Shown one piece after another: positions 32,536-60,184 of a stretch of DNA of 64,000 nt (position 1 is its first letter; every line of letters starts with the position of its first letter). Below the pieces are notes generated by a model, which was given only the letters and a program-made list of their open reading frames with translations, was not told where the DNA came from and ran no database searches. The stretch comes from Fidelibacterota bacterium SCGC AAA160-B08 (GTDB lineage: Bacteria > Fidelibacterota > Marinisomatia > Marinisomatales > Marinisomataceae): positions 9,402-73,401 of the forward strand of contig AQSD01000001.1 of assembly GCA_000402755.1 (NCBI GenBank). Direction: 5' to 3'. The position numbers and the translations under genes are program-made.

Positions 32536-32556
32536 TTATTGTTTGTGAAACAATAA
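32536..32556. promoter_or_regulatory. 21-bp inverted repeat TTATTGTTT-GTG-AAACAATAA in the divergent rpmH/dnaA promoter region
   Basis: Perfect 9-bp arms with a 3-nt spacer, read directly from the sequence. Function unknown. Confidence 0.3.
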
Positions 32557-32657
32557 AAACTATAGCAAAAAAGAGGGAAAACAAAGAAAAGTTCTGGATA
32601 TCCGTAAAAAAGAATGTTAATCTAATGCAAGACAGTTTATTTTTTTTGTTAACAACT

Positions 32658-32666
32658 TGTGGATAA
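32658..32666. promoter_or_regulatory. Perfect DnaA box (TGTGGATAA) 2 nt upstream of the dnaA ATG
   Basis: Exact reverse complement of the consensus TTATCCACA. It sits at the ribosome-binding position of dnaA, which is consistent with autoregulation. Confidence 0.6.
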
Positions 32667-32668
32667 CT

Positions 32669-40245: not shown

Positions 40246-41699
40246 TCTTTTTTAGAGGAGTCTAATCTGTTTTCTTCAAGTTGTTTTAAAAACTCTTTTG
40301 TTACATTTCCAGTACAATACTCTCCAGTAAAAACAGAATCTTCAAAATTTTTAATTTTAGGATTACCAATTTGAGCAGAGAGTTTTAATGCCCCTAGCTC
40401 TTGATAAACTAAAACATCGGCGCCTATAAATTTTTCTACTTCTTTTACGGTTCTTCCGTTAGCTACAAGCTCGCTTGTTGCTGGCATATCAATACCATAT
40501 ACGTTTTGATACCTAATAGGAGGAGCTGCAGAGGCAAAAAACACTTTATTTGCACCACTCTTTCTAACCATTTCAATAATTTTTTTAGATGTATTTCCTC
40601 TTACAATAGAGTCATCTACAAGTAAGACATTTTTATTTTTAAATTCAATTTCAATTGGACTCAGCTTATGCGCAACAGACCTTTTTCTAATGCTTTGCCC
40701 CGGCATTATAAACGTTCTACCGATATATCTGTTTTTGATAAAACCTTCGCGGTATTTTGCTCCAAGCTTATAGGCAACCTGCATTGCTGAGGTTCTACTT
40801 GTGTCTGGTATGGGAATAACAACGTCTATATCAAGATGGCCATATTCTTTTAATATTTTTTCACCTAAAAAATCGCCCATTCTTAAGCGAGCCTTATGAA
40901 CAGATATAGAATCGATGGTAGAGTCTGGACGAGAAAAATAAACAAACTCAAAAAGACATGGAGTGTGGTTTTCTTTTTTAGAACACTGTTTTTTTGACAA
41001 CTCCCCATCTTCTGAAATAATAATTGCTTCTCCCGGGTTAACGTCTCGGACAAAAGAGTAGCCCAGCGCAGTAAGGGCAGAACTTTCTGATGCAACCATA
41101 TAAGAGTCCTTGTTTTTTCCCAAAACAAGAGGACGAATTCCGTTTGGATCTCTAAAGGCTACAATACCAACCCCCGCAACGAGCATTACCACCGCATACC
41201 CACCCTCACACTGCTGGTATACATTTTTTAAAGCAGTAAAAACGTGGTTGTTTTTTAAGTTTCTAAAGTTTGTTTTATAAAGCTCATATGCAAAAAGATT
41301 TAACAAAACTTCAGAGTCTGACTGCGTATTAAACTGACAAAAGTGCGTTTTTAAAAGAGAGGCCCTTGTTTGTTCGCTGTTGGTTAAGGTTCCATTATGT
41401 GCAAGTGAAATATTAACAGGATTTGCTGAATAAAATGGTTGAGCTTCGCTTGCATCCGAACACCCCGCCGTAGGATATCTTACATGACCCACACCAACAT
41501 TGCCTTCGAGACTTAAAGACTCGCTGGTTTTAAAAACCTCAGTCACAACCCCAAGTTCTTTATGTAAAGACATTTTTGACTTATCCCAAGTAGCAATTCC
41601 GGCAGCATCTTGTCCTCTATGCTGTACCTGTATTAAGGCGTCGTATATCTCTCCAGATACATTTTTATTTTTATGATATATTCCAACTATTCCGCACAT
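40242..41699 (-). CDS. purF: Amidophosphoribosyltransferase
   Basis: N-terminal nucleophile MCGIVGI, the Ntn-GATase domain and the PRTase motif VLLVDDSIVRGNT. Confidence 0.96.
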   Translation of the reverse strand: MCGIVGIYHKNKNVSGEIYDALIQVQHRGQDAAGIATWDKSKMSLHKELGVVTEVFKTSESLSLEGNVGVGHVRYPTAGCSDASEAQPFYSANPVNISLAHNGTLTNSEQTRASLLKTHFCQFNTQSDSEVLLNLFAYELYKTNFRNLKNNHVFTALKNVYQQCEGGYAVVMLVAGVGIVAFRDPNGIRPLVLGKNKDSYMVASESSALTALGYSFVRDVNPGEAIIISEDGELSKKQCSKKENHTPCLFEFVYFSRPDSTIDSISVHKARLRMGDFLGEKILKEYGHLDIDVVIPIPDTSRTSAMQVAYKLGAKYREGFIKNRYIGRTFIMPGQSIRKRSVAHKLSPIEIEFKNKNVLLVDDSIVRGNTSKKIIEMVRKSGANKVFFASAAPPIRYQNVYGIDMPATSELVANGRTVKEVEKFIGADVLVYQELGALKLSAQIGNPKIKNFEDSVFTGEYCTGNVTKEFLKQLEENRLDSSKKE

Positions 41700-41701
41700 A
41701 A

Positions 41702-43051
41702 CTAATACTTCTTTAAAATCTTCTTTATTTCACCAACATAGGTTGCTGGTGTAAGGTTTAATAGCGTGATTTTGTCTTGTTTTGAAATCTTTAACCGATC
41801 AACCAAACCTAAATAGGTTTCTTGATCTAGGGGAACACCCCTGGTTAGTTTTTTAATTTTATTGTATGCATTTTTATCCCCAGATTTTCGCAAAATTGTT
41901 TGTATTGCTTCTGCCAAAATACTCCACTGACCTTCTAGCTCGTTCGAAAGCTGTGTTTCGTTTGGATGAATTCTGCCAAGCCCGTTAATAATATTTTTAT
42001 AAGCCAGAAGAGAGTGACCAAAAGCAACCCCAACATTTCTAAAAAGCGTACTTCCACTTAAATCTCTTTGCATTCTAGATCGAGATAGTCTTGACGCCAA
42101 AAACATAAAGCTGGCATTAGAAAGCTCTAGATTTCCCTCTGCATTCTCAAAAGATATTGGATTAATTTTGTGGGGCATAGTACTCGAACCAACTTCGCCC
42201 GGTTTGTTCGTTTGTGTAAAAATATTTCTACTAATATATAACCAAACATCAACACACATATCAGTCAGGATGTTATTAGTCCTCACAAAAGCATGTAATA
42301 ACTCAGCAATAGAGTCGCTTGGCTCAACTTGTGTGGTGATTGGGTTGTTTTTTAAGCCTAAATCTCTAATAAATTTAGCTGAAAAAGCAGACCAAGACTC
42401 TTTTGGAAAAGCAATGTTGTGAGCAGCAAAAGTGCCCGTTGCACCAGAAAACTTAGCCAATAAAACATGATTTTTTATATATACAATTTGTCTTTGTAGT
42501 CTGCTGTGAAAAACCGCCATTTCTTTTCCAAGCGTGGTGGTTGTAGCGGGCTGTCCATGCGTCAAAGATAGCATTGGCATATCTTTTGTTTCTTTTATTA
42601 ACAATACAAGCAGAGCAGACATCTCTTCCAGGGCTTTGAATAGCGGCCCATTAATACCTCGCTGAAACATTAGAGAATATGCTGTGTTGTTAATGTCTTC
42701 TGAGGTAAGCCCAAAATGAACAAACGGGACTAGGTGTGGATAGCCATTTTTCTCTAGTTTTTGAGAAAAATATCCCACAACAGCATTAACATCGTGTTTT
42801 GTTTTAGCCTCAATTCTTTTGACCGCGTTGTATTCTTTTTGATCAAAATTTTCATAAAAACTGTGAAGAATTTTTTCGTCACCCTTCTTTAAAGATAGTT
42901 CTTTTTTCAGTGCGCGATGCTGAGAAAGGGCAACAAGATATTTTACCTCAACCTCTAGTCGCGATTTCATTAGAGCCTGTTCTGAAAAAAAATCGTTTAG
43001 CTCTAAAACATTTTTTTTATATCTACCATCTAAGGGAGAAATGGCGCTCAT
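41702..43051 (-). CDS. purB: Adenylosuccinate lyase
   Basis: SPLDGRY N-terminus and the fumarate-lyase signature GSSTMPHKINP; 449 aa. Confidence 0.95.
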   Translation of the reverse strand: MSAISPLDGRYKKNVLELNDFFSEQALMKSRLEVEVKYLVALSQHRALKKELSLKKGDEKILHSFYENFDQKEYNAVKRIEAKTKHDVNAVVGYFSQKLEKNGYPHLVPFVHFGLTSEDINNTAYSLMFQRGINGPLFKALEEMSALLVLLIKETKDMPMLSLTHGQPATTTTLGKEMAVFHSRLQRQIVYIKNHVLLAKFSGATGTFAAHNIAFPKESWSAFSAKFIRDLGLKNNPITTQVEPSDSIAELLHAFVRTNNILTDMCVDVWLYISRNIFTQTNKPGEVGSSTMPHKINPISFENAEGNLELSNASFMFLASRLSRSRMQRDLSGSTLFRNVGVAFGHSLLAYKNIINGLGRIHPNETQLSNELEGQWSILAEAIQTILRKSGDKNAYNKIKKLTRGVPLDQETYLGLVDRLKISKQDKITLLNLTPATYVGEIKKILKKY

Positions 43052-43443
43052 ATTTTCCCCAGATTTAGCATCCTATGTATTGCTAAAGCACAATTTCCAG
43101 GATCAAGCACGGTTAATACCGGAGTCATACTAGGCATTTGCAGCGTAGAGTGAATGTTAACAAGCATATCTACCTTATCTTGAAATGGAGGACAACCAAT
43201 GGTTGGCTTTTGTGTGTTTGCTGCTACAAAACCTGAAAGAGCATTAGACCTTCCCGCTATAGTTACAAAAACAACATGTTCTTCTGATGTATAAGACCGT
43301 ATAATTTCTAAAACTTTCTCTGGGTTTTTGTGCGCAGAGGCAGCAAAAGTTTCATGGCTAACTCCCAAAGTATCAAGCGTAGAGGTTATTTTATCTGCAT
43401 GCCCCTGGTCAGAGGTTGAACCCATAATTAGTACTGCTTTCAT
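43048..43443 (-). CDS. purE: Class II PurE (AIR carboxylase type), short 131-aa form
   Basis: The PurE fold is present (VLIMGSTSD). It carries SAHK (aa 36-39) and AGRSN (aa 63-67) plus GCPP, as in the PurE domain of animal PAICS. Class I enzymes have SAHR and AGGAAHLPG instead. No purK is present in the operon. Confidence 0.85.
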   Translation of the reverse strand: MKAVLIMGSTSDQGHADKITSTLDTLGVSHETFAASAHKNPEKVLEIIRSYTSEEHVVFVTIAGRSNALSGFVAANTQKPTIGCPPFQDKVDMLVNIHSTLQMPSMTPVLTVLDPGNCALAIHRMLNLGKI

Positions 43444-44414
43444 ATTAGCTCCTTAGTGTTATTAAAAATTCTTTCGTCAATATCGGTTAGGTCTGGAAAC
43501 TGAAATTTTTTACCCGTTATAAGTTCATATAATAAGATGTACCTCGCAGACAGCTCTATAATTAATTCATCTGGAGCCTCTGGTAATATTTTATCGTTAT
43601 ATGGGTCACAGTTTTTTGCGAACCAAAGCCTAAGAAACTCTTTATCAATATTTTGTGGCTCCTCGTTTTGCTCAAAACGACCGGTATAGGTTTCTTCTAT
43701 CCAATATCGACTAGAGTCGGGCGTATGTATTTCATCAACAAACTTAATGTTTCCATGAGCATCTTTTCCCAGCTCATATTTAGTGTCAACGAGAATTAAT
43801 CCATTTTTTGCCGCAATGCGCTGCCCATAATTAAAAAGATCTAAGCTCATTTTTGCTGCTTTGTCAAAGTCTTCTTCTGTCATAAGTCCCAGCTCAAGAA
43901 TTTCATCTTTTGAAACAGGCCTATCATGAACCTTATCTTTTGTAGTTGGGGTTAGCATTGGCTCTCCAAGCTTTTGATTTTTTTTCAAACCAGAAGGAAT
44001 TGGGTTACCACAATATTCTTTAGCACCGTTTTTATAAACGGTCCAAAGAGAGGTTTCGGTTGATCCTGTAATATATCCCCTTACAACAAACTCCACCTGA
44101 AACACATCGCACTTTTCTACAAGCGAAATATTGGGATCGGGAGTACTGATTAAGTGATTTGGAAATTGGTCTTTTGTTTTTTCGAACCACCATGCACTCA
44201 CCAGGTTTAAGACAGTTCCCTTGTATGGTATTCTTGCTAAAACTCTATCAAAGGCACTTTGCCTGTCAGTAGAAACCATAAGTACTTTGTCGTCCAAGAA
44301 ATAGGCATCACGCACCTTACCCACTTGTTTATTTTTTACGTGAATGTTGGTATCCTGAATTGTGTTATTCAGGTTCTCTCTAATTACCTGATAGTATTTT
44401 TTGTCAATATTCAT
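43440..44414 (-). CDS. purC: SAICAR synthetase (long, fungal/plant-like form)
   Basis: The LILVDTKYELG and DEIHTPDSSRYW motifs are present; 324 aa. Confidence 0.93.
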   Translation of the reverse strand: MNIDKKYYQVIRENLNNTIQDTNIHVKNKQVGKVRDAYFLDDKVLMVSTDRQSAFDRVLARIPYKGTVLNLVSAWWFEKTKDQFPNHLISTPDPNISLVEKCDVFQVEFVVRGYITGSTETSLWTVYKNGAKEYCGNPIPSGLKKNQKLGEPMLTPTTKDKVHDRPVSKDEILELGLMTEEDFDKAAKMSLDLFNYGQRIAAKNGLILVDTKYELGKDAHGNIKFVDEIHTPDSSRYWIEETYTGRFEQNEEPQNIDKEFLRLWFAKNCDPYNDKILPEAPDELIIELSARYILLYELITGKKFQFPDLTDIDERIFNNTKELI

Positions 44415-45657
44415 GACGTTCTTGCGAAATTGGATTACACAAAATATGACTATTTAAGATTAAATCAATGTCTTTTTTTGCTTGTTTTTTTTGAGAGACA
44501 GTTTCCCAAACCGTACCCTTTATAATATTTTTTATATTTAGAAAGCCAAAGCGCTTTTGTAGGGTTTCTTTCATCTTGCGGCCATCAATATTTTCTTTTT
44601 CTCTAACTAAAAAACGAGAACCAGAGTTTTTTTCTATACCACTAACCACAAACTCCTTGCTAGGATTAAATAAAACGTCTGTAGCAAATATATTTTCTAT
44701 GTCTAGGGCCCCATCATGCTCTATTTCAAGGTGTAAATATTTTTTTATAACAAGACCCTCTACCCCAAGCCTCTTTATACACTGACTAACAGAGATTGCT
44801 TCGTTGTCAGCAATAATCATAGATATTAAAATCTCGGTAGTATTTTTTTTCTTTTTAAAAGGGGAGAGAGCTATTTTTTGAGAGTTATATTTTAGAGACT
44901 TATAACTAAAAGAGGATTCAGTATTTAAAAACTGATTAAGAGCCTTAAAAACAGGATCACCCTTAGTGGTACGCTCCGGGTGTGGCATCATAGCTAATAC
45001 ATTGCCTCCAACATTTCCAAGAGCGGCAATATTATTGGTTGACCCGTTTGGGTTTATAGGAAAATTATTTACAACATCTCCATCCTCATTACAGTAATGA
45101 TATGCGGCAAGATTTTCTTTTTCAACAATCTCTTTTAGATCATCGTTCATTACAAATCTTCCCTCGGCATGTGCCAAAGGTACACTAAGAAAACCTTTAC
45201 AGTCTTTATCAATAAAGGCAGAATTGTTTTGTGCGTTGCTTTTGATATTACACCAAGTATTGTAGTACCCAGTGCCAATCACCCGCCCATTTTTCACCCG
45301 CTTATTTTGAGACAAACTTACAACAGTGTTAAAGTTTGTGTTCCCCGGAACCATTCCGGCCTCTACTAAAATCTGAGCCCCATTACAAATTCCCAAAACA
45401 GGTTTTCCTTGTAAGGCCTCATTTTTTAATGTGTCCATAATTGGATCTAAAGAAGCAATAATACCAGACCTAGATCGATCTTCGTAGGAGAAGCCACCAA
45501 CAATAACATATCCATCACAGGTTTTTAATTGAGAAGACGGCTCGTTCCATAGATGTGATATCGGGACCATACCACTTCTTTTGATTGCTGCAATAGTTTC
45601 AAGCTCTGTGTTTGAGCCGGGAAATTGAATAATAGCTATCTTGCGCTTATTTGTCAT
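44404..45657 (-). CDS. purQ: FGAM synthase glutaminase subunit PurQ fused to a C-terminal tandem PurS-like region
   Basis: Residues 1-245 are the GATase (GICNGAQIL nucleophile, MPHPER). Residues 273-338 and 347-417 look like two PurS-type modules (..RLGVEGLVIKKYLHLEIE...DVLFNPSKE.. and ..RFGFLNIKNIIKGTVWE...HILCNPISQE..). No separate purS ORF is present. Confidence 0.85.
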   Translation of the reverse strand: MTNKRKIAIIQFPGSNTELETIAAIKRSGMVPISHLWNEPSSQLKTCDGYVIVGGFSYEDRSRSGIIASLDPIMDTLKNEALQGKPVLGICNGAQILVEAGMVPGNTNFNTVVSLSQNKRVKNGRVIGTGYYNTWCNIKSNAQNNSAFIDKDCKGFLSVPLAHAEGRFVMNDDLKEIVEKENLAAYHYCNEDGDVVNNFPINPNGSTNNIAALGNVGGNVLAMMPHPERTTKGDPVFKALNQFLNTESSFSYKSLKYNSQKIALSPFKKKKNTTEILISMIIADNEAISVSQCIKRLGVEGLVIKKYLHLEIEHDGALDIENIFATDVLFNPSKEFVVSGIEKNSGSRFLVREKENIDGRKMKETLQKRFGFLNIKNIIKGTVWETVSQKKQAKKDIDLILNSHILCNPISQERHEY

Positions 45658-46689
45658 TCAAGTAAACCTGTTTAGATGAATTTGATACAATCACACCTAT
45701 TTCAAGGCAATTATTTGCCCCCAACATTTTTACAAGTCGATCTTTTTGTGATGGGTCAACAATAATAGTAAGACCAATCCCCATATTAAACGTACGGTAC
45801 ATTTCATTTATTTCTAAGTCCAGGTTTTCTACTAGAAACTGAAAAAGGGGAATTTTTTCCCAAGAATTGACATTAATCTCTGCAGCAAAGCCATCAGGAA
45901 AAACCCTTGGCATGTTATCAATTAGTCCACCACCGGTTATGTGCGCCAAGCTCTTAATTTGGAACTCTTTTTCAATAAGAAGGTTAATCATTTTACTATA
46001 ATTTTTATGTGGAGCAAGCAAAGCCTCTTCAATTGTGGTGGTTTTATCTGAAAGAGTATCGCTCACGCCTAGACTTAAAACATCAAAAATTAATTTTCTT
46101 GCTAATGAATACCCGTTTGTATGTAGACCGCTAGATGGGATACCCATAATTAAATCACCCTGTTTGACACAAGAGCCGTCGACAATGTCTTTTCGCTCTA
46201 CAATACCCGTTGCAATGCCAACCAAATCATATTCGTTTTTATGGTATGTGCCAGGCATTTCAGCGGTTTCTCCGCCAACCAAAGAAACCCCCAAGTTTTT
46301 ACACTCCGTGGCGACACTTTCTATAATATCTGAAACGATTTGTGGCTCTAAAGAGCTACTTGCAATATAATCAAGAAAGGTGAGAGGTGTTGCGCCAGTA
46401 GCTGCTACGTCATTACAGCAAGCATTTACCAAATCAAAACCTATAAAACTGAAGTTGTTACATTTTTGTGCTACAGCCATCTTTGTACCAACGCCATCAA
46501 TGCTTTGGACCATGACCGGGTCCTCGTAGCGATTAACAATATCTTTAATGTTATACATTGACCCAAACCCGCCAATTGAAGACAATACATTTTTATTAAA
46601 AGTAGATTGAATAATTTTTTTAGACGATGCGATTACATGATCTGCTTTTTCAATATCTACTCCAGCATCTTTATATGAAATTTTTTGTT

Positions 46690-46693
<4 letters not shown>
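45647..46693 (-). CDS. purM: AIR synthetase
   Basis: YKDAGVDI, GGFG and the DGVGTK motif are present. Start moved to ATG 46693 (MKQKISYKDAGV), giving an ATGA overlap with the purL stop. Confidence 0.95.
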
Positions 46694-50321
<3,628 letters not shown>

Positions 50322-50346: not shown

Positions 50347-51591
50347 GTGGATTCTATATACCAAAATAATACTTTTAAAACTGTAGTTTTTTTAAGCTTT
50401 TTCTTTTTTAATAGCTGTGCATTTGTGGGGCAACTAGCCATTCCAATGGAGTCAATTGACAAGCCAAAGGGACCTTATGGTATTGGTACCCAAGTCTTCT
50501 TCTGGACAGATGAAAAAAGGAGCGAACAATACACAACAGACCCAACGGATTTCAGAAAGCTGCAAGTACAAATTTGGTATCCTGCACAAATGAAGGAAGG
50601 CTATCAAAAAACAACTCATATGGTGTTTCCTAATAAGACATTAGATGCTATGGCGAGCACTCTTAATGTACCGGTGAATTTTATAAGACATGGCGCACGA
50701 CTAATGTCAAGCGCAGTTCAAGGAGCACATCCAGTAGAGGGAGAAAAATTCCCATTGATATTATTTTCACATGGTGATGGAGGCGTAGCAACTCAAAACC
50801 TGTCACAGGTTGAAGCGCTAGTAAGTAACGGATATATTGTGATTGCCCCCAACCACACCTATAATGCTTCTATTACTTTTGACGAAGAAGGTACCCCAGC
50901 TATATATCAATCCAATATTACGTGGAGCGAACAAACAATATATAGCAAGAAGTACTATGCAAATCAACTGATACGATATCGATATGCAGATATTGCGTTT
51001 ATATTAGATGAAATATCAAAAAATACCATACAAGGATCTATATCAAATCCTTATTACGACATGATAGATTTTGAACGCGTGGGAATGATGGGACACTCCA
51101 TGGGAGCAGGAACTAGCTATCATGGACTAATAAATGATAGGCGTATTAAGTCGGCAGCAGCATTCGATGGATGGTTTTTCCCTTTAGACAAAAAAACTTT
51201 TTCCACCCAAACCGACAAACCTTTTCTTCACTTAGGACAAGAGGAGTATTTGGATATAGATATAGAGGGTGATATTAATAATTCCGAATCCGGAAAGATT
51301 AATTTTGACATTCATAATGCCATCTTAGAAAACAATACAAGTTCTTTCGTTGTTTATGTTGAAAACAGTCTCCACGTTGACTTTACTGATTATAAACAGA
51401 CATATATTCAAGGAAGACCATTTACAATCCCGATATCTGACTTTGGAGATATCTCAAGAAATAAAATTAAAAATATTATGAACAAATCAATTCTAGAGTT
51501 TTTTAACTATACATTTAAAGGCGAAGAATTTGATCCAACAGTTCTAGATCAATATAATAATAGTATAAAAGTGAGCTATGATCCCAACTAG
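50347..51591 (+). CDS. Alpha/beta hydrolase, PAF-acetylhydrolase-like lipase/esterase (probable lipoprotein)
   Basis: GXSXG nucleophile elbow GHSMGAG. An N-terminal GPYGIGT...D..R strand resembles PAF-AH isoform II-family proteins. The leader is hydrophobic with a Cys (FFFNSC). Confidence 0.7.
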   Translation: MDSIYQNNTFKTVVFLSFFFFNSCAFVGQLAIPMESIDKPKGPYGIGTQVFFWTDEKRSEQYTTDPTDFRKLQVQIWYPAQMKEGYQKTTHMVFPNKTLDAMASTLNVPVNFIRHGARLMSSAVQGAHPVEGEKFPLILFSHGDGGVATQNLSQVEALVSNGYIVIAPNHTYNASITFDEEGTPAIYQSNITWSEQTIYSKKYYANQLIRYRYADIAFILDEISKNTIQGSISNPYYDMIDFERVGMMGHSMGAGTSYHGLINDRRIKSAAAFDGWFFPLDKKTFSTQTDKPFLHLGQEEYLDIDIEGDINNSESGKINFDIHNAILENNTSSFVVYVENSLHVDFTDYKQTYIQGRPFTIPISDFGDISRNKIKNIMNKSILEFFNYTFKGEEFDPTVLDQYNNSIKVSYDPN

Positions 51592-51701
51592 TTTTATAAA
51601 AAAAGTGGGAACATTTACCAAAAAATGGTGCCGGGTTTCACCATATTTAAGCTAAAAAAAAGAAAGATTTAATTTTTTTAGCCCAATTTGTCGTCTTGAA
51701 A

Positions 51702-51724
51702 GTCAATACTAAAAAAGTATTGAC
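51702..51724. promoter_or_regulatory. Inverted repeat GTCAATAC-N7-GTATTGAC, overlapping a TTGACA hexamer, upstream of the TonB-dependent receptor gene
   Basis: Perfect 8-bp arms read directly from the sequence. TTGACA lies at 51720-51725. Operator or promoter function is inferred only. Confidence 0.3.
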
Positions 51725-51768
51725 ATCAACTAAAACAATCCTCAATTTAAATGGATTTCACATTTGAA

Positions 51769-51782
51769 GGGATACGTATCCC
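51769..51782. promoter_or_regulatory. 14-bp perfect palindrome GGGATACGTATCCC in the leader of the TonB-dependent receptor gene
   Basis: Read directly from the sequence, about 150 nt upstream of the ATG at 51933. It is followed by a near-palindrome GGTACATATATACC. Confidence 0.3.
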
Positions 51783-51932
51783 CCGAACGTGGTACATATA
51801 TACCGTAAAAAGTATGTATGAAATTAAAAATTATATATACATTATATATATATAGGTAAATGAATGAAGACAAAAATGAAACAAAATAACAAATTAAAAT
51901 TTGTATATAAAAACTCATTTGGAGGTAGAATA

Positions 51933-54900
51933 ATGAGAAAACTACGTATGTTAATTGCGCTTCTTGTTCTTCCTACTCTTATGTTTGCACAGTCAACAAC
52001 TGCTAAATTAGCAGGTGTTGTAGCTGACGCTGATGGTAATCCATTGGTTGGAGCAAACGTAGTTGTAGAGGGATCAAACTTAGGTGCAGCTACCGATCAA
52101 TTAGGTAGATACTATATTCTTGACGTTCCTGTAGGCGACTATAACTTGAGAGCCGAGTATATCGGTTATACTACAGTTATAGAGGCTGGTGTAAGAACTT
52201 CTGTTGGTTTTACAACAACAGTTGACTTTGCACTGGGTGTAGCTTCAGTTGCAGGTCAAGAAGTGACAGTAACAAGAGAAAGACCGTTAATTAATCCGAA
52301 TGCTACGAATACAACTCGTGTTGTTGATAAAGAGTTGATTGATGCATTTGCTGTGAGAGGGGTTGAGAATATTGTTAACCTTCAAACAGGTGTTGTTAAT
52401 GGATATTTCCGTGGAAGTAGAAGTGGAGATAGTAGATACTATGTCGACGGCGTTCCTGTAAAAGATGTTTACGGTGGCGGAAATCTATTAAACGGTAACT
52501 CCCAATCATCACTACAAGAGATTTCAGTGCAAACTGGAGGATTCTCTGCAGAATATGGTGGTGCTAATGGAGGGATTGTAAATATTACTACCAAAACTGG
52601 TGGTACACAATGGAGATCAAAAGTAGGAGCAGAAATGTCTTTAGGGGCTGATGCTAGTACTGATCCCGACAAACTATACTCTGATGGATATAAAAATGTC
52701 AACTTTGACTTTGGTGGTCCAATCAGTGATAATGTAAAAGTATACTTGTCTATTGAAGCAAAAGAAAAGGCCGGTGACGTTTCTTATAGTTACTTCCCTA
52801 AATATGATGCTATGCCAATGACAGAAGTTCCTGCTGACTATTACAGCGATGGTACTGATGGATTTGTATACGGTAACGACGCAAATGGTAACAAGGTTTC
52901 ACACATTGAAACCGTAGTAAGAGACAACCAAACAGATCCAGCATTGTTGGCTTCTGGTGTTGCAGCTTACGATACAACATATGTTGTATATAGTAACTAT
53001 GAGCGTATGTACGGACAACAACCACAAGATGATAACGAGCGTATTACAGTAAATGGTAATATGACAATGGATTTTGGTCCATTGCGTGTCAAATTAGGTA
53101 CACAGGCTTATGACTATACAGGACACAGCTATAGTTGGAGTAGAGTTCTAGGTGGAACTGACGGTTCATATATTAATGAATCAGATTTCACTATGGGATA
53201 TATGAACTTCAGATATACTATTAGTCCTTTATCTTATGCTAAAGTTTCGATTTCAAATCAAACTTATGAAACAACAGGTGGTAATGAAAATTACTTACAT
53301 GATATTGAAGCATATGGTAGAAGAACCAAAGCATTTGGTTCAGCAAACTATTACAAACGTGACGGAACTGGATTTAACCCACTATCACCAGATGAATTTA
53401 TTGGTGCAGCAGGTTTTGGATCACAGTACACAAGTTACGATACAAGAAAAACTACTACAAACACTGTAAGCTTTGACTACACTAACCAAGTTGGTTACAA
53501 CGAGTTTAAAGTTGGTGGTTCTGTAGACACTCACGAAATTAGTCGTTATGGTCTTGGAGCATCAGGTGTTGCTAGAGCAATTAGCCAAGTAGACGCTAAT
53601 TATGATGGTGTAGCTACAAATGAAGAAATCATTGCTGCGGGAAGTGACCCAGCAGACTGGAAATTCATTAACTACAGAGCTCTGTATGTAACAAATCTTG
53701 GGTATAATATTTATGGTGATGAATGGAATGGAACATATAATCAAGATGATCATATGTTATCTCCAGCAGAACCAACCCAATCACGTTTCTATGTTCAAGA
53801 TAAACTTGAATTTAAAGATGTAGTTGTACAAGTTGGTGTTTCAATAGAATCAATTGATACTGGTGCTATGGCTCCAGATTCAGATGGTGATGGCTATGGA
53901 GACTCAGACGGGTTCAACCACCTATACTTTAATAGACAGCGTGTAGATAGAAATGGTGATGGTAACGGCAACTTTGTTTGGAAAAAAACAAAAAAAGAAA
54001 CTGCTACACATCCTAGAATTGGTATCTCATTCCCAGTATCCGATCGTACAGTATTCCGTGCGAATTACGGAACACACTGGCAGTCAGTTCCAATGTCATA
54101 TCTATACTTATCAGATTCACAGCTATCAGCTGATATCTTAGCTGGTAATGCTACTGCATCTGAAAACCCTGCGTTAAAACCAGAACGTTCCACTCAGTAT
54201 GAAATTGGTATTGAGCAACGTATTGGTGCTTTCGCGTCATTAAAAATTGAAGGGTTTTATAAAGAAAGTAAAGATTACTTGACGCTTGCAAATCGTACAG
54301 AAGCATTTACAAATACTGGTGGTGCAGATACTCAACAAAACTGGGCACAGTATTTAAATGGAGACGTTATGGTCTCACAAGGTTTGACAACAAACTTTGA
54401 AATGCGTAGAACTAGAGGTTTGTATGCGCAAGCAAATTATACATACTCAGAATCTAGAGGTACTGGATCTTATGGAGATCAGAACTTCTATGTTACTTGG
54501 ATTGGTACGGATGATGGATATCCAAAAGCGATGAATCTATTAGACTATGACCAAAGTCATACTGCAAACGTAATCCTTGACTGGCGTTCACCGAATGCTA
54601 CTGGTGCGTTAGCTAATACAGGATTTAATGCTGTAATGAGCTTTGGTAGTGGTACTCGCTTTACACCATCTCAAATCTATAGTACAGTTTTTGAGAACAG
54701 ATGGGAATTCCCAGAGGGTCCGGTAAACTCAGGTACAATGCCTGCGTTCACTAACCTTGATCTACGTGTAGACAGAGCCTTTAAAATGGGCGGCGTGACA
54801 GCAAATGCATATGTTGCAGTGTTTAACGTTCTAGACGCAGAGCAGGTTAATGATGTTTATCATGGAACCGGTAACGTAGCTGAAGATGGCTGGGTTGCAA

Positions 54901-55046
54901 CTGAAAGTGGGCAGCAATGGCTTGCCAATAGATTAGCAACTAACCCTGACGTTGATGCAGCGGCACTTTACCAGGATAATTTAGCATTTCCTAGTAGATG
55001 GAGCGCTCCTCGTACAGTCAGAGTTGGTATGAACATTAGTTTTTAA
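51933..55046 (+). CDS. TonB-dependent outer-membrane receptor with an N-terminal carboxypeptidase-regulatory-like domain (SusC-like architecture)
   Basis: A strong SD (GGAGG, 51921-51925) lies 7 nt before ATG 51933, and the signal peptide is MRKLRMLIALLVLPTLMFAQ. The N-terminal domain reads GVVADADGNPLVGANVVVEG...GRYYILDVPVGDYNLRAEYIGY. Plug motifs (VTVTR...VVDKELI...LQTGV, SVQTGGFSAEYGGANGGIVNITTK) and a long barrel ending in F (RVGMNISF) follow. Confidence 0.85.
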   Translation: MRKLRMLIALLVLPTLMFAQSTTAKLAGVVADADGNPLVGANVVVEGSNLGAATDQLGRYYILDVPVGDYNLRAEYIGYTTVIEAGVRTSVGFTTTVDFALGVASVAGQEVTVTRERPLINPNATNTTRVVDKELIDAFAVRGVENIVNLQTGVVNGYFRGSRSGDSRYYVDGVPVKDVYGGGNLLNGNSQSSLQEISVQTGGFSAEYGGANGGIVNITTKTGGTQWRSKVGAEMSLGADASTDPDKLYSDGYKNVNFDFGGPISDNVKVYLSIEAKEKAGDVSYSYFPKYDAMPMTEVPADYYSDGTDGFVYGNDANGNKVSHIETVVRDNQTDPALLASGVAAYDTTYVVYSNYERMYGQQPQDDNERITVNGNMTMDFGPLRVKLGTQAYDYTGHSYSWSRVLGGTDGSYINESDFTMGYMNFRYTISPLSYAKVSISNQTYETTGGNENYLHDIEAYGRRTKAFGSANYYKRDGTGFNPLSPDEFIGAAGFGSQYTSYDTRKTTTNTVSFDYTNQVGYNEFKVGGSVDTHEISRYGLGASGVARAISQVDANYDGVATNEEIIAAGSDPADWKFINYRALYVTNLGYNIYGDEWNGTYNQDDHMLSPAEPTQSRFYVQDKLEFKDVVVQVGVSIESIDTGAMAPDSDGDGYGDSDGFNHLYFNRQRVDRNGDGNGNFVWKKTKKETATHPRIGISFPVSDRTVFRANYGTHWQSVPMSYLYLSDSQLSADILAGNATASENPALKPERSTQYEIGIEQRIGAFASLKIEGFYKESKDYLTLANRTEAFTNTGGADTQQNWAQYLNGDVMVSQGLTTNFEMRRTRGLYAQANYTYSESRGTGSYGDQNFYVTWIGTDDGYPKAMNLLDYDQSHTANVILDWRSPNATGALANTGFNAVMSFGSGTRFTPSQIYSTVFENRWEFPEGPVNSGTMPAFTNLDLRVDRAFKMGGVTANAYVAVFNVLDAEQVNDVYHGTGNVAEDGWVATESGQQWLANRLATNPDVDAAALYQDNLAFPSRWSAPRTVRVGMNISF

Positions 55047-55072
55047 TTAAATAAGAAGGTAAAGAGGTAAAT

Positions 55073-58000
55073 ATGAAAATCTTAAAGAATATTACCGTTT
55101 TCACATTGGTGATGTTACTGTCAGTAACTACTGGCCTTGAAGCGAGAGACAAAGCTGTCTCTAACTTTAGTAGCTCATCCAATTATGTGGATTCTGTCGG
55201 TACGTTCGATGGGAATAAAATCTATGCAGACGTTGCCAACAATGGCCTATTTCTGGATTACCACGTTTCTGGTGATTCAGCATTAGAATGGCCAAAAGGC
55301 ACGGGTGCACACTCTATCTTCCAATCCGCATTATGGATGGGAGCTACAGTGAATGGATCTATTCGAACTATCGTTGGAGATTATACACAAGACATGGGTC
55401 CAGGTCCATGGGGTGGTGACCCGCTAGCTACGGTGCACAGAATCTATAAAGTAGAGAAATCTATGTTAGCTTCCCCCCTTGACTTCGCTGACTTCCAAGA
55501 ATGGCCAGTTGATTTTGGTGCACCTTGGGTTGACGTAGATGGTGACGGAGTTTATACTCCATTACCAGGTGGAACTGATCACCCAGAATTTCTAGGAGAC
55601 CAAGTACTTTGGTTTGTTAGTAATGATGGAGATCCAGCTTATAAATTGAATTTTGGAACATCACCACTAAACGTGGAGATTCAAACAACTATGTTTGGTT
55701 TTGATAGACCTGACGTATTTGGTGACATGGTGTTCTTGAAACAATTAGTTATTAATAAAGGTTCAGATGACTTAGTCGATACTTATATGGGACTATGGTC
55801 AGACCCTGATCTAGGAAACGCGGGTGACGACCTTGTTGGTTGTGACGTAGAACTAGGTATGGGTTATGTTTGGAATGACGGTGCAGACAGTGTCTATGAC
55901 AACTTAAGCGTCGGTACTCCAGCAGCTGGGTATGACTTCTTTCAAGGTCCAATGGTAGATTGTGACGCAACAGAAGATTGTACAGAAGGGGCCAAAATGT
56001 TTGGTACTCGTCACCCAGGTAAAAAGAACCTTCAGATGTCATCGTTTGCATTCTACATTAATGGAGATGCGACATACACTGACCCTGCTGATGAAACAGA
56101 GGGGTATTTTTACTTAAAAGGTTTAAGAAAAGATGGAAGTGCATATCCAGTAGACATAGCCGGAGATCTATATGATCAACGTTTCTGTTTCTATGGAGAC
56201 CCTGCAACTACCCATGGTACTGCTAACCCTGTTGACGGAAACTATGCAGCTTCAGCTGATAGACGTTTCCTAATGAGTGTTGGTCCATTTACTATGGCAT
56301 CAGGTGACTCACAAGAAGTAGTGTTTGGAATTTTCCATGCTGCTGGTGGTGACGCGTTAGCTTCTGTAGCTTACCTAAAAGAAGTAGATGCATTAGCTCA
56401 AACAGCTTACGACATTGACTTTGCTCTGCCCGACTCACCTCCTGCACCAAGCGTGTCAGCAAGTGCGTTAGCAGACCAAGTGTTATTAGTTTGGGGCGAT
56501 AATGCTGAAAGTTACAATGCGCTTAGTGAAGTTGACTTAGACGCAGCAGGTAACCCTACAAGCTTTGTATTCGAAGGATACAATGTTTATCAGTACGAAA
56601 CAGCATCAGGAGCCGGAGCTAAGAAGAGATTAGCTACTTATGATATTGTAAACGGAACTACTGAAATCTACGACACAGTATTTAATGCTGAGTTAGGTGA
56701 GAATATTAACATTAGAACGCAGTTTGGATCAGACAGTGGATTAGCACACTTTGAAGCCATCACAACAGATGGATTAAATGGTAATTCAAAACTGATTACA
56801 AATCGTTCATATTATTATGGTGTAACCGCATATGGTTACAACGCTTCCGGGATTCCAAAAACATTGGAAAGTAGCCCGGTAGTACTTACTGTAAGACCAG
56901 AAGTACCTAATACATTTGCTGCAGGCGACAATACTGCTTCAGCGGGTGATATAATCACAACAGTTCACGTTGGACCGTCTCAAGGTTCAGTAGACGTGGT
57001 AGTTGTAGATGCTTCTGCAATGACGGGTGATACCTACACAGTAACAATGGATGATGCAATGCCAGATGGCACTGTAGCCGTTAATTGGTCACTAACAAAC
57101 GATATGACTGGTGAAGTTCTTATCGCTAACAACGCTGTTGTTGGTGGTGTGAACACTGCAACAGGTGTTGAAGTTGGTCCAGGCGGAACTCCAGTTGTTG
57201 AAGGTATTCAACTCCTAGTCAATGGTCCTCAAGAAGACTTACTATCAGTAAGTGAATGGGATCACGGCTGGAAAGAAAATCAAGTACTTAGAGACCCTGC
57301 GGTTTCTTATGTACCTTTCGCTAGTTTAGGTCGTACAGGATATATTTTAGAAAATAGAGCAGGTGTACCTTACTCACCTCCTTATGCTCGTGACTTTGAC
57401 CGATTTAATTATTGGGAATCAGATGACGTTGAGCTAGACTTTAGTACTCCATCATTAGGGTATGACTATCTTAGTGAAACAATAAATAGTTATGTTTCAT
57501 GGTCAACATACAGACATAACTTTGCTACTGGAAACAAAGAGCAAATGTTTTCTTCATATTGGGACTATAATGGTACCGGTACACATGATCTTGAAGGCGA
57601 ATATTGGATAAGTCCAGTCTACGGCAAGAACTCATTTGAACCGATCTATGCCTTTGTAGGTAATCCGGGATCTCATTATGATCCGGCTAAAGAGGCTCAA
57701 TATATTTCTGAGAACTCCGTAACTGCCTCAGGTGGTTGTGGTTGGGGATCAGGAGGCTCTTGTACTGCGACTACTACAAGTGGTGCAGTAATCGGATATC
57801 CATATATGACAGCGACATTGTTTGCTGACTATTTAGGATCAGGAGTATTACCAACCAAGGAAGGTTTTGAGTCCTGGGGTGGTTTCACTACAGCTAGTTC
57901 TGTAGTATGGCAAATGAGTAAACCAAATTCATCAGCAGATACGTTTACGTTTTCTACTGAAGGATTAGGTATGATGGCTAACAGTTACGATCCAGATCGT

Positions 58001-58312
58001 ATCTCAGTATGGCCAAATCCATATTACGGGTATAATCCAGAAGAGCGTGATGCGCTAGATCGTAGAGTGATGTTTAGTCACTTACCTGAAGAAGGTCCTG
58101 CGACAATTCGTATCTTTGCACTTGATGGTACACTAGTAAGAACAATTCACCACAATGATACAGCTTCACAACACGCAACATGGAACATGAAGAACAACTT
58201 CGAGTTACCAGTTGCTAGTGGAATGTATGTGGCACACATAGAGACTAACCACGGAGATAAAATCCTGAAGTTAGCTGTAATTCAACCAGAACAACGTTTA
58301 GACGTTTATTAA
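55073..58312 (+). CDS. Large secreted protein of unknown function with a T9SS type-A C-terminal sorting domain
   Basis: Signal peptide MKILKNITVFTLVMLLSVTTGLEA. The last ~95 aa fit the Por-secretion-tail pattern (VWPNPY...ATIRIFALDGTLVRTI...ASGMYVAHIETNHGDKILKLAVIQ). There is a central FN3-like segment (PPAPSVSASALADQVLLVWGDN...FEGYNVYQYE) and a DVDGDG calcium-type motif. No catalytic motif was recognised. Confidence 0.7.
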   Translation: MKILKNITVFTLVMLLSVTTGLEARDKAVSNFSSSSNYVDSVGTFDGNKIYADVANNGLFLDYHVSGDSALEWPKGTGAHSIFQSALWMGATVNGSIRTIVGDYTQDMGPGPWGGDPLATVHRIYKVEKSMLASPLDFADFQEWPVDFGAPWVDVDGDGVYTPLPGGTDHPEFLGDQVLWFVSNDGDPAYKLNFGTSPLNVEIQTTMFGFDRPDVFGDMVFLKQLVINKGSDDLVDTYMGLWSDPDLGNAGDDLVGCDVELGMGYVWNDGADSVYDNLSVGTPAAGYDFFQGPMVDCDATEDCTEGAKMFGTRHPGKKNLQMSSFAFYINGDATYTDPADETEGYFYLKGLRKDGSAYPVDIAGDLYDQRFCFYGDPATTHGTANPVDGNYAASADRRFLMSVGPFTMASGDSQEVVFGIFHAAGGDALASVAYLKEVDALAQTAYDIDFALPDSPPAPSVSASALADQVLLVWGDNAESYNALSEVDLDAAGNPTSFVFEGYNVYQYETASGAGAKKRLATYDIVNGTTEIYDTVFNAELGENINIRTQFGSDSGLAHFEAITTDGLNGNSKLITNRSYYYGVTAYGYNASGIPKTLESSPVVLTVRPEVPNTFAAGDNTASAGDIITTVHVGPSQGSVDVVVVDASAMTGDTYTVTMDDAMPDGTVAVNWSLTNDMTGEVLIANNAVVGGVNTATGVEVGPGGTPVVEGIQLLVNGPQEDLLSVSEWDHGWKENQVLRDPAVSYVPFASLGRTGYILENRAGVPYSPPYARDFDRFNYWESDDVELDFSTPSLGYDYLSETINSYVSWSTYRHNFATGNKEQMFSSYWDYNGTGTHDLEGEYWISPVYGKNSFEPIYAFVGNPGSHYDPAKEAQYISENSVTASGGCGWGSGGSCTATTTSGAVIGYPYMTATLFADYLGSGVLPTKEGFESWGGFTTASSVVWQMSKPNSSADTFTFSTEGLGMMANSYDPDRISVWPNPYYGYNPEERDALDRRVMFSHLPEEGPATIRIFALDGTLVRTIHHNDTASQHATWNMKNNFELPVASGMYVAHIETNHGDKILKLAVIQPEQRLDVY

Positions 58313-58325
58313 GGAAAAGGAGAAA

Positions 58326-59381
58326 ATGAAAATGAAAAATACATTTAAAATCTTCCTTGGATGCGCAGTGTTGGTTTCAGCACTAACTGCTGGTACCGTA
58401 AGATCGCAAGGTACTGCTGGTGCTTCGCAATTGCTTATCCCAGTAGGGACTGAGACAGTTGCTCTTAGCGGAACAAACGTTGGTACAGTAGCTGGAATAG
58501 ATGCATTATTTACTAATGTAGCTGGTCTAGCAAGACACAACTCTGGTTTACAAGGAACAGTTTCAACCACATCTTACATTGCTGACATTAATGTCACATA
58601 TGCAGGTATGGTTATGAGTATGGGCGAATCAGGTACTTTTGGAATGACACTAAAGTCATTAGACTTTGGTGATATCCCAAAAACTACATCATTTGCTCCA
58701 GAGGGAGATGGTCAAACATTTTCCCCTAGTTTTTTCACGGCGACAGCAGGATTTGCGAGAGCATTCTCTGACCGTGTTAATGTTGGTATTGCAACAAAGA
58801 TGATTTCTGAGACAATCGAAGAAACATCTGCAACTGGATTTGCATTCGACGTAGGCGTCCAATACAAATTCCCTGACCAACCATTGACAATTGGTGTTGC
58901 AATGAAAAACGTTGGTAGTAGAATGCATTATGATGGTATTAACCTAGACCAGAACCTCACACCAGAGGGAGCTGAATCAGGTTCATCATCTGAAACGTTT
59001 AGAATTGTTGCAGATAACTTTGCTCTGCCAACAAGTCTAGATCTTTCTATGACCTACTCATTACTTAACAACTTAGATGTGAGCACAACGTTCACTAATC
59101 ACTCATACCAAAGCAATACTTTAGCAGTCGGTGCTAAATATATGCTAGGTAGCGCTTGGGTTGGCGCAGCTACAGTAATGACTGTAGGCGACGACTCACA
59201 ACCAAACGACGTTTCTGACGCAGATTGGGAAGAGTGGAGCGGAACCAATTGGGGAGCTTCAATGGGTGCAGGTGTAACAGTGCCAGTAGGCGACTATACA
59301 ATGCATATTTCATATGCTATGAGAACAGCAAACGAATACTTTGATGACCATAGCACTATGCAAGTTACCTTTGATTTCTAA
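58326..59381 (+). CDS. PorV/PorQ-family (FadL-like) outer-membrane beta-barrel protein
   Basis: SD AAGGAG lies just upstream and a signal peptide is present. The mature N-terminus GTAGASQLLIPVGTETVALSGTNVGTVAGIDALFTNVAGLA fits the PorV-family pattern (G.sgA.fL.i..gaRa.amGga..A.a.D..a...NPAGLA). The sequence has alternating beta-strand character and ends in aromatic F (VTFDF). Confidence 0.65.
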   Translation: MKMKNTFKIFLGCAVLVSALTAGTVRSQGTAGASQLLIPVGTETVALSGTNVGTVAGIDALFTNVAGLARHNSGLQGTVSTTSYIADINVTYAGMVMSMGESGTFGMTLKSLDFGDIPKTTSFAPEGDGQTFSPSFFTATAGFARAFSDRVNVGIATKMISETIEETSATGFAFDVGVQYKFPDQPLTIGVAMKNVGSRMHYDGINLDQNLTPEGAESGSSSETFRIVADNFALPTSLDLSMTYSLLNNLDVSTTFTNHSYQSNTLAVGAKYMLGSAWVGAATVMTVGDDSQPNDVSDADWEEWSGTNWGASMGAGVTVPVGDYTMHISYAMRTANEYFDDHSTMQVTFDF

Positions 59382-59405
59382 ACTGTTTAGTTAAGGATTC
59401 AAATT

Positions 59406-59436
59406 AAAAGGGGCTCTTTTTAGAGCCCCTTTTTTA
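59406..59436. terminator. Bidirectional rho-independent terminator between the convergent PorV-like and M23 peptidase genes
   Basis: AAAA-GGGGCTCT-TTTT-AGAGCCCC-TTTTTT: an 8-bp GC-rich stem, a 4-nt loop, an A-run upstream and a T-run downstream. Confidence 0.8.
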
Positions 59437-59464: not shown

Positions 59465-60184
59465 TTAATCAAATAAAATTTTAATATTATCATGGAGATA
59501 ATCAGATGGAATATTTTGTCCTAAAAAATATCTTTCAGTGGCGTCATCGAAATGTAGCTCCCAATGTAGATGAGCCCCTTTATTATTTCTCAATGCTCCA
59601 TCAGATGTCCCTGTATTACCAGAAAACCCAATAAGATCCCCTTTTTCTACTAGAGTTCCAGGAAGAATACCTTCTGCTATATTAGATAGATGTGCATATA
59701 CGCTAATAGTTCTAAATTTTGAAGTGATAGTATAGCCATGATCAATCACAATAGATTTTCCAAGCAAGATATATTGATAAATATCATCAGGAGTCTTACC
59801 AAGCTCTGCAGAGGTGCTTAAAAAGGCATTATAGGTGTCAAGGTCGACATCCATATGTTGCGGGTTACTTCTTACTACAATACCACCCGAAACAGCCGTA
59901 ATAGGCGTATTTAAGGGAGCAGAAAAATCAATACCTTCATGATAGCCTGATCGGTACTCCCTTTTTGCATTTGGAAGTAAGTTTAATACGGAGGGAACAA
60001 GATAATCTTTTGATGGCAGTTGAATTGTAGTTAATAGTTCTGATTCGTGAAGATTGGTATTTTCATCAATATAAAATAAAAATTTTTCTTTTAATGGCGG
60101 CGTTGACTCTAAGTTCATAGACGTAGTTGGCGCTGCGCAGGCACCCAACAATAAGGTTAATCCTATGTAATAGTTAATTTTCAT
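59465..60184 (-). CDS. M23 family metallopeptidase lipoprotein
   Basis: Lipobox LLLGACAAP. The HxxxD motif (GYHEGIDF) and HxH motif (AHLHWELH) of LytM/M23 peptidases are present. Confidence 0.88.
   Translation of the reverse strand: MKINYYIGLTLLLGACAAPTTSMNLESTPPLKEKFLFYIDENTNLHESELLTTIQLPSKDYLVPSVLNLLPNAKREYRSGYHEGIDFSAPLNTPITAVSGGIVVRSNPQHMDVDLDTYNAFLSTSAELGKTPDDIYQYILLGKSIVIDHGYTITSKFRTISVYAHLSNIAEGILPGTLVEKGDLIGFSGNTGTSDGALRNNKGAHLHWELHFDDATERYFLGQNIPSDYLHDNIKILFD

Follow-up and report, generated by a model that had tools for sequence, protein, structure and literature searches.

The window analysed here is a stretch of 64,000 nucleotides (nt) from Fidelibacterota bacterium SCGC AAA160-B08 (contig AQSD01000001.1, positions 9,402 to 73,401), and within it lies a triad of adjoining genes, referred to as genes 1, 2 and 3, which code for a TonB-dependent transporter, a large secreted protein with a C-terminal domain (CTD) of the kind used by a type IX secretion system (T9SS), plus an outer-membrane β-barrel. 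All three are real open reading frames (ORFs) transcribed in the rightwards direction with intergenic gaps of just 26 and 13 nt, and the positions of the frames and of the Shine-Dalgarno site ahead of each confirm the arrangement described in an earlier, sequence-only reading of this DNA that was made without database searches. Each part of the triad is of a known kind; the conserved combination, together with the gene 2 family, has no description in Pfam, NCBIfam or the PDB, nor in the literature searched, a limited library in which no published description of the triad was found. A constant TonB-dependent transporter as the first gene of such an operon is without precedent in the papers searched, which makes the triad a good candidate for a capture-and-uptake complex of a new kind at the cell surface.

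The order of the three genes is conserved across phyla, in several lineages of the Fibrobacterota-Chlorobiota-Bacteroidota (FCB) superphylum. One genome per species was scanned, the best 79 of the loci of 541 gene 2 relatives were analysed, and synteny was counted with an iterative profile search across all ORFs of these 79 loci. Gene 1 lies directly upstream and gene 3 directly downstream in 67 of the 81 gene 2 copies, with median gaps over all copies of 25 and 18 nt; the other copies are cut by a contig end, fall among frameshift-split ORFs or are second paralogs. By their record titles the loci belong to Marinimicrobia, Ignavibacteria/Melioribacteraceae, Candidatus Kryptonium (Kryptonia), Calditrichota, Zixibacteria, KSB1 and metagenome-assembled genomes (MAGs) filed as unclassified 'Bacteroidetes', and independent gene calls confirm the triad at 30-55% identity, at one locus only in part. 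Genes 1, 2 and 3 are the only gene clusters common to nearly all of the loci. Pairwise distances of the three genes vary closely together, with correlations of 0.94 (gene 1 and gene 3) and 0.91 (gene 1 and the N-terminal domain of gene 2), indicating that the triad is passed on as one unit. A Rosetta-stone search of 305 family proteins reveals no fusion of gene 2 with gene 1 or with gene 3. The proteins closest to gene 2 are metagenomic, and the named ones derive from MAGs and single-cell genomes of Candidatus Marinimicrobia/Neomarinimicrobiota (SAR406). Two SAR406-type triads (L010 and L036) are filed under 'Hyphomicrobiales' and 'Parcubacteria group' MAGs, and these are probably binning errors.

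The gene 1 product matches three Pfam models, CarboxypepD_reg (PF13620, 61.1 bits), Plug (PF07715, 24.8 bits and just over the cutoff) and the TonB barrel (PF00593, 66.9 bits), and its C-terminal residue is Phe. This domain layout is as given in the sequence-only reading, where it was termed a SusC architecture, but membership of the SusC/RagA family is not upheld: gene 1 scores 28.6 bits with TIGR04056 against a cutoff of 368.25, and the match is limited to residues 48-278. A profile of 29 gene 1 orthologs finds generic transporters in the PDB (the colicin I receptor, PhuR and PfeA) and matches RagA in the N-terminal domain only. The combination of CarboxypepD_reg, plug and barrel constitutes the 'Oar architecture', which is seen in 28% of TonB-dependent transporters and is neither SusC-specific nor SusD-paired (PMC6434023). 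Judged by its domains and profile matches, gene 1 is an Oar-type TonB-dependent transporter; as it lies outside SusC/RagA, the absence of a SusD gene is expected and is no anomaly, and the emphasis that had been placed on a missing SusD falls away. Gene 1 itself has no match to PF25183 (OMP_b-brl_4) at an E-value (E) of 0.01 or below, and its distant orthologs at loci L024 and L034 match this model, which we take to describe an Oar-like barrel, at 46.1 and 49.2 bits (cutoff 30). A TonB-box-like motif and invariant plug residues are kept throughout the gene 1 family, as would be expected if the protein is a functional gated transporter and does more than anchor a partner.

Gene 2 had been called an orphan, and it is instead part of a very large family. 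A word-indexed search recovers 672 proteins, and a profile search across 1.84 billion representatives recovers 9,110 clusters (counted at 50% identity) at E ≤ 1e-3 and 2,361 at E ≤ 1e-30, with single 90% clusters holding up to 1,660 metagenomic sequences. In their source records the relatives are named 'hypothetical protein' or 'T9SS type A sorting domain-containing protein'. The gene 2 product carries a signal peptide of the Sec type and, being without a lipobox, is no lipoprotein; it yields no SusD Pfam match and is predicted to be all-β. Pfam and NCBIfam have no model for the body of about 950 amino acids (aa): in 41 diverse members that were scanned, matches are limited to the CTD (by Por_Secre_tail, by FlgD_ig and by the CTD portion of the PorZ model, positions ~660-757), and neither sequence nor profile searches find a relative in the PDB. 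A match to a well-characterised enzyme family, which the sequence-only reading had named as an outcome that would refute its idea, is thus not seen.

An AlphaFold2 (AF2) model of gene 2 built on a diverse alignment of 71 sequences is almost wholly β (predicted local distance difference test score, pLDDT, 85.9; predicted template modelling score, pTM, 0.79), and one built on 21 close homologs had a pLDDT of 58.5. The domain borders listed in the table were drawn from predicted secondary structure and per-block confidence. Foldseek comparison of the whole chain with the PDB gives partial similarities only, with template modelling (TM) scores of 0.2 or less. The best match is PorZ (5M11), PorU (6ZA2) is also found, both in the TM-score range 0.08-0.13, and further matches are to the glycoside hydrolase (GH) enzymes of families GH94, GH116 and GH161, to archaeal surface-layer (S-layer) proteins and to arrays of immunoglobulin-like (Ig) domains of the alpha-2-macroglobulin type. 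The region matched in the GH enzymes is presumably their N-terminal β-sandwich. These enzymes have an (α/α)6 catalytic domain, of which gene 2 has no counterpart since it is predicted to be almost entirely β. The family shows neither an HExxH motif nor any conserved His, Cys or Ser; conservation falls instead on Asp, Asn, Glu, Arg, Trp and Tyr (for example D244, D246, D253, D272, D396 and R398, and a DVDGDG loop), a set that would fit metal or sugar binding. An enzymatic role is rejected for now, given the lack of these catalytic signatures and of any Pfam or NCBIfam match to the body in the 41 members scanned. A distant branch of the family (P0145, P0155, P0162 and P0211) carries Ig, cadherin and PKD repeats. 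Within it, P0145 has a metzincin-type peptidase domain in a large insertion in the N-domain near aa 300, corresponding to aa ~297-303 (a Cys-Cys loop) of the window protein, and P0155 has a weak Peptidase_M43 match; P0145 and P0162 are the only members of the branch whose context was examined, and neither is next to a transporter or barrel.

The CTD is recognised in relatives by several models: TIGR04183 matches 24 of the 41 members at E ≤ 0.001, some of them above its cutoff (27.4, 24.2 and 23.2 bits), PF18962 matches eight and FlgD_ig eleven, and the PorZ model matches 39, its CTD part at up to 43.9 bits. The PorZ CTD portion scores higher on the relatives' CTDs than does the generic TIGR04183. 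Conservation of the CTD is unusually high and exceeds that of any other part of gene 2, with an identity to the window protein of 0.91 in close relatives (0.62-0.84 for the other domains) and 0.46 in distant ones (0.16-0.40). Since it is both the most conserved part and PorZ-like, the CTD appears to have a lasting role rather than serving as a disposable signal.

Gene 3 codes for a FadL-like outer-membrane barrel with a C-terminal Phe and passes the PorV/PorQ family model NF033709 (121.6 bits, cutoff 90). It falls short of both equivalog models, PorQ NF033711 (82.5 bits against 220) and PorV NF033710 (44.6 bits against 250), and is therefore placed in a separate subfamily as an ortholog of neither. 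A search of the PDB with the single gene 3 sequence has no match; a profile of 29 orthologs matches Flavobacterium johnsoniae PorV (6H3I, E = 1.4e-23) and then the FadL-type TodX, and the relatives carry the NCBI name 'PorV/PorQ family protein'. By family model and profile gene 3 is, as the sequence-only reading had proposed, PorV-like and no generic porin, and it represents a subfamily in its own right.

The signals around the triad, listed in the table, are best explained by a single transcription unit that runs from a TTGACA element and a 5' hairpin through genes 1, 2 and 3 to a strong terminator. When the upstream region is aligned with that of 11-13 related loci, the true start of gene 1 proves to be the ATG at 51933, because an invariant block, ACTCATTTGGAGGTAGAATA, holds a Shine-Dalgarno site before it; GGAGGT at 51921 followed by N6-ATG is unchanged in 11 relatives. 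The leader measured from this start is 341 nt long, in agreement with the leader noted by the sequence-only reading. Both of the palindromes noted by the sequence-only reading are present in it, but they are only weakly unusual on their own, a repeat of this kind arising in 6% and 11% of leader sequences shuffled by mononucleotide, and the first is probably due to chance or lineage-specific, its left arm being kept no further than the nearest relative (L004). The terminator had been described as the clearest in the window, and it exceeds the other terminator-like sites of the scanned region, four in all, by a wide margin in both length and G-C richness. At the other end, the hairpin at 51625-51644 sets the upstream hydrolase gene apart from the triad.

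The whole leader from 51720 to 51932 is unusually conserved in SAR406 relatives, and includes the TTGACA, a stem-loop with compensatory changes, an AT-rich block with AGGGTAAG at its end and the invariant 23-nt ribosome-binding region. The conserved TTGACA is a candidate -35 promoter element. The stem-loop contains 12 hairpin pairs by RNAalifold, nine of them with changes on both sides; its folding energy is unremarkable (minimum free energy -10.8 kcal/mol, z-score only -1.56), and an Rfam scan of the leader and operon returned no relevant family and none for this stem-loop. The leader could act as an mRNA-stabilising 5' hairpin of the kind seen in ompA, or could be an unrecognised regulatory leader.

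Table. Features of the three-gene unit and its leader, in window positions.
Feature	Position	Strand	Description
Terminator-like hairpin	51625..51644	.	directly 3' of the upstream hydrolase gene's stop codon; placed on the - strand by the terminator scan
Palindrome 1	51702..51724	+	GTCAATAC-N7-GTATTGAC; right arm overlaps the conserved TTGACA
TTGACA	51720..51725	+	candidate -35 promoter element; identical in 10 of 11 aligned relatives; conserved block TCAATTTA follows
Leader (5' untranslated region) stem-loop	51758..51792	+	present in all relatives aligned
Palindrome 2	51769..51782	+	GGGATACGTATCCC; core of a longer conserved hairpin
ORF 1	51864..55046	+	1060 aa
Shine-Dalgarno site, gene 1	51921..51926	+	GGAGGT; stretch ACTCATTTGGAGGTAGAATAATG invariant in 11 relatives
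Gene 1, from corrected start	51933..55046	+	1037 aa
Gene 1 signal peptide	N-terminus of 1037-aa protein	+	MRKLRMLIALLVLPTLMFAQ
Gene 1 CarboxypepD_reg	52008-52235	+	Pfam
Gene 1 TonB-box-like motif	52257-52280	+	QEVTVTRE, aa 132-139; inside a family-conserved V-x-V-x-A-E block
Gene 1 plug	52305-52574	+	Pfam
Gene 1 barrel	53319-54821	+	Pfam
Shine-Dalgarno site, gene 2	55062..55068	+	AAGAGGT; 4-5 nt ahead of ATG
Gene 2	55073..58312	+	1079 aa
Gene 2 N-domain	55190-56422	+	aa 40-450; AF2 prediction
Gene 2 Fn3-like domain	56435-56908	+	aa 455-612; AF2 prediction
Gene 2 Ig-like domain	56930-57262	+	aa 620-730; AF2 prediction
Gene 2 variable region	57263-57967	+	aa 731-965; AF2 prediction; hypervariable among relatives
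Gene 2 T9SS type-A-like CTD	57995-58309	+	aa 975-1079; TIGR04183 score below cutoff in the window protein, TIGR04183 and PorZ-profile matches in relatives
Shine-Dalgarno site, gene 3	58317..58322	+	AAGGAG; 4-5 nt ahead of ATG
Gene 3	58326..59381	+	351 aa
Intrinsic terminator at operon end	59406..59436	+	12-bp stem, 6 G-C pairs, 4-nt loop, T run

The remainder of the window contains housekeeping genes, so that the triad is seen to lie in the core chromosome and not in an island. A replication-origin neighbourhood at 20318-34009 includes gyrA, gyrB, dnaN, a SurA-like peptidyl-prolyl isomerase gene, mnmG, mnmE, yidC and dnaA (32657-34009), and the GC content falls to 0.30 at 24-28 kb of the window. 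The triad is about 18 kb from dnaA, a position of high gene dosage. A leftwards-transcribed purine-biosynthesis run at 36494-50312 comprises purH, purD, purF, purB, purC and purA, together with parts of a purQ/L-type formylglycinamidine ribonucleotide synthase and a gene related to aminoimidazole ribonucleotide synthase (AIRS domain); genes for prolyl-tRNA synthetase, MgtE and BipA are also in the window. Immediately upstream of the triad (50347-51591) is a gene for an alpha/beta hydrolase resembling platelet-activating factor acetylhydrolase, with weak PETase-like and chlorophyllase matches; it has its own terminator-like hairpin and is kept in this place in the SAR406 clade (11 loci), not in other phyla. 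Downstream, at 59465-60184 on the - strand, is a gene for an M23 peptidoglycan endopeptidase, and in 32 loci (among them L001-L027, L024, L040 and L069) such a gene follows the triad at a distance of no more than ~5 kb. It is convergent with the triad in Marinimicrobia but has the same direction in Ignavibacteria, and this apparent link to the cell envelope extends over several phyla. No T9SS core genes (SprA/Sov, GldK-N/PorK-N) are found within the 64-kb window.

Other loci differ in what adjoins the triad. At L024 (12428-16646) and 8-19 similar loci of the Ignavibacteria type, a co-directional gene with a GWxTD domain is located downstream (19 loci in all), and the downstream genes of such loci also include those for a lipid A acyltransferase, a lipopolysaccharide (LPS) heptosyltransferase-like protein and an M23 peptidase. 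A second and shorter transporter of ~770 aa (CarboxypepD_reg and plug), paired with an unannotated 396-aa protein, lies near the triad in L017 (4378-7874) and in a further 9-10 loci of Marinimicrobia. L074 (12270-14666) and 17 other loci of a Marinimicrobia clade have, directly downstream of gene 3, a gene for a T9SS-CTD protein of ~800 aa with a Por_Secre_tail match above cutoff, which is absent from the window. At L086 (7824-13485) the triad continues through overlapping genes into NlpC/P60, S66 LD-carboxypeptidase, MR_MLE epimerase and Amidase_3 genes, which together form a murein-peptide recycling set. Since none of the remaining loci has these genes, the murein link is not general, and uptake of peptidoglycan fragments is rejected as a general role.

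We tentatively lean towards a scenario in which gene 2 encodes a T9SS-delivered surface capture protein that is parked through its retained CTD on the gene 3 barrel and serves the gene 1 transporter. The gene 2 product would reach the periplasm by Sec and then cross the outer membrane through the T9SS by means of its CTD, which would be neither cleaved nor replaced by LPS attachment and would remain docked on the barrel. The acidic, aromatic-rich β-sandwich body would in this way be held on the surface beside the transporter, where it may capture or present a ligand, possibly a glycan or other polymer fragment, which gene 1 would import with energy from TonB. We infer these steps of export, retention, contact and import from genomic evidence, and what suggests that the transporter and gene 2 cooperate is the structure of the operon. 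In Porphyromonas gingivalis the CTD of PorZ is uncleaved and binds PorQ and that of PorU stays on PorV, and genes for type-B cargo proteins cluster with those for cognate PorP/SprF barrels that are proposed to anchor the cargo and shield its CTD (reviewed in PMC10202324). A conserved, PorZ-like CTD and a dedicated adjoining barrel would fit this retained-CTD pattern by analogy. Of the capture-module idea in the sequence-only reading, what endures is a conserved, undescribed triad with a dedicated PorV-like barrel, and what is lost is its SusC/SusD framing and its orphan. None of the three outcomes that it had named as refuting (an enzyme-family match for gene 2, loss of synteny in relatives, a generic porin as gene 3) was observed, so the proposal of a transporter partner delivered by the T9SS and anchored on a barrel withstands the tests made here.

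Several observations weigh against this scenario. The T9SS tail assigned to gene 2 by the sequence-only reading is recognisable and above cutoff in several relatives, but in the window protein TIGR04183 scores 18.1 bits, below its cutoff of 23. Neither Pfam, NCBIfam, PDB and Foldseek searches nor the conserved residues reveal a recognisable ligand-binding or catalytic domain in gene 2, and no clue to a substrate recurs consistently among neighbouring genes across the loci. Mirror-tree and partial correlations among the CTD, gene 3 and gene 1 all fall within 0.57-0.94, and with everything correlated such analysis cannot tell contact from shared descent. At an Ignavibacteriales locus (L082, CP065001.1, 3850-21035) the triad and a GWxTD-domain gene are followed by at least three tandem gene 2 paralogs, 46-66% identical to one another, which have no transporter or barrel of their own and share one of each, and one gene 2 homolog elsewhere is solitary. 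Pairing with the transporter is therefore not obligatory for every member of the family, and these additional and solitary copies weaken a strict 1:1:1 model.

The same tandem arrays are among the observations that would suit a mainly structural gene 2, an S-layer-like coat, adhesin or variable surface antigen anchored through gene 3, with the transporter co-transcribed as a platform or for stoichiometric assembly of the envelope and with no hand-over of ligand. We consider this unlikely, though it accommodates much of what is seen: a chain of β-sandwich, Fn3 and Ig-like domains with matches to archaeal S-layer proteins and alpha-2-macroglobulin-type arrays, a hypervariable region at aa 731-965, the recurrent M23 peptidase and the lipid A acyltransferase and heptosyltransferase genes of Ignavibacteria as envelope neighbours, and a housekeeping context near dnaA. 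It leaves unexplained, however, why a plug-bearing transporter with a TonB-box-like motif lies immediately upstream across phyla, and the Foldseek similarities on which it draws are weak (TM ≤ 0.2).

A transporter working outwards, as proposed for Oar of Myxococcus in PopC secretion, would also fit the inheritance of the three genes as a unit, gene 1 exporting or assembling gene 2 for self-contained, TonB-powered display at the surface and gene 3 receiving or anchoring it. The Oar architecture of gene 1 and the PF25183 matches of its orthologs (taken here as an Oar-like barrel model) are consistent with this, but it is very improbable: gene 2 has a T9SS-type CTD and organisms with CTD proteins have a translocon for them, nearby CTD proteins in related loci and the extra gene 2 paralogs are without a transporter of their own, and the Oar mechanism is itself not settled. 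About as improbable is that genes 2 and 3 are machinery rather than cargo, a local attachment-complex pair equivalent to porU-porV or PorZ-PorQ. In the porU-porV order the gene for a large CTD protein precedes that for a PorV-family barrel, which genes 2 and 3 mirror; PorZ and PorU appear among the Foldseek matches, PorZ as the best, and the PorZ model matches nearly the entire sample of the family (39/41). Those PorZ and PorU matches for which coordinates are listed are nevertheless confined to the CTD (profile ~660-757), the TM-scores are only 0.08-0.13, the Cys/His dyad of PorU has no conserved counterpart, and gene 2 is rejected as an ortholog of either protein. Several gene 2 paralogs per genome, along with solitary copies, also speak against a part of the machinery, as do the gene 3 scores below both the PorV and PorQ equivalog cutoffs.

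If the three proteins do cooperate as in the capture scenario, they would join the T9SS with its PorV-like barrels to TonB-dependent uptake, two systems so far studied apart. A function would be provided for a large unannotated family (>9,000 clusters at 50% identity), and the triad would point to a major nutrient-capture device in SAR406, an abundant oceanic lineage, and in further FCB bacteria, likewise uncultured, by which organic matter is processed in oceans and sediments. Somewhat more doubtful is the broader proposition that FCB lineages outside Bacteroidia, SAR406 included, have a third way of giving a TonB-dependent transporter a surface partner and thereby form a stable three-protein uptake complex. 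In that reading the partner would be neither a lipoprotein lid such as SusD or BtuG nor a Slam-exported lipoprotein, and would instead be T9SS-exported and sit permanently on a PorQ-like barrel of its own, and the ~950-aa body of gene 2 would be a new and very large family of ligand-capture proteins.

Comparison with known systems shows partial similarities to each. The SusC/SusD (RagA/RagB) systems of Bacteroidota also have a transporter of ~1000 aa with CarboxypepD_reg, plug and barrel, followed directly by the gene for a surface partner, and may likewise be present as several paralogous sets per genome. They differ in that gene 1 fails TIGR04056 and its profile matches RagA in the N-terminal domain only, and in that gene 2 is an all-β, 1079-aa non-lipoprotein unrelated to the helical SusD; its delivery is proposed to be by the CTD, whereas SusD follows lipoprotein export, and the triad includes a third gene that codes for a barrel. 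Transporters with surface lipoprotein partners are known outside the Sus system in BtuB-BtuG and TbpA-TbpB, in which a surface capture protein is similarly encoded beside the transporter. Their partners are lipid-anchored, whereas the anchor proposed here is a separate β-barrel reached via the T9SS.

Oar of Myxococcus xanthus is like gene 1 in architecture, with a PF13620 extension, a plug and a 22-strand-type barrel in ~1040-1060 aa (PMC6434023), but it adjoins Ton-system genes rather than those for a CTD protein and a PorV-like barrel, and its proposed role is in the export of PopC. Type-B CTD cargo with PorP/SprF-like barrels, as in SprB-SprF of Flavobacterium, resembles the triad in that a cargo gene stands beside its own PorV-like barrel gene (PMC10202324); the CTD of gene 2 is type-A-like (TIGR04183/PF18962/FlgD_ig) and not type B, gene 3 belongs to the PorV/PorQ and not the PorP/SprF family, and the known pairs are without a transporter. 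In PorZ-PorQ and PorU-PorV of P. gingivalis a large CTD surface protein is held on a barrel of the PorV/PorQ family by its uncleaved CTD (PMC10202324), a retention that belongs to those systems and is proposed for gene 2 by analogy. Gene 3 is of the same barrel family and the gene 2 CTD resembles that of PorZ, but the gene 2 body is related neither to the twin β-propellers of PorZ nor to the C25-type Cys/His peptidase domain of PorU, gene 3 is not an ortholog of PorV or PorQ, and the pair described here is part of a transporter operon and occurs as paralogs.

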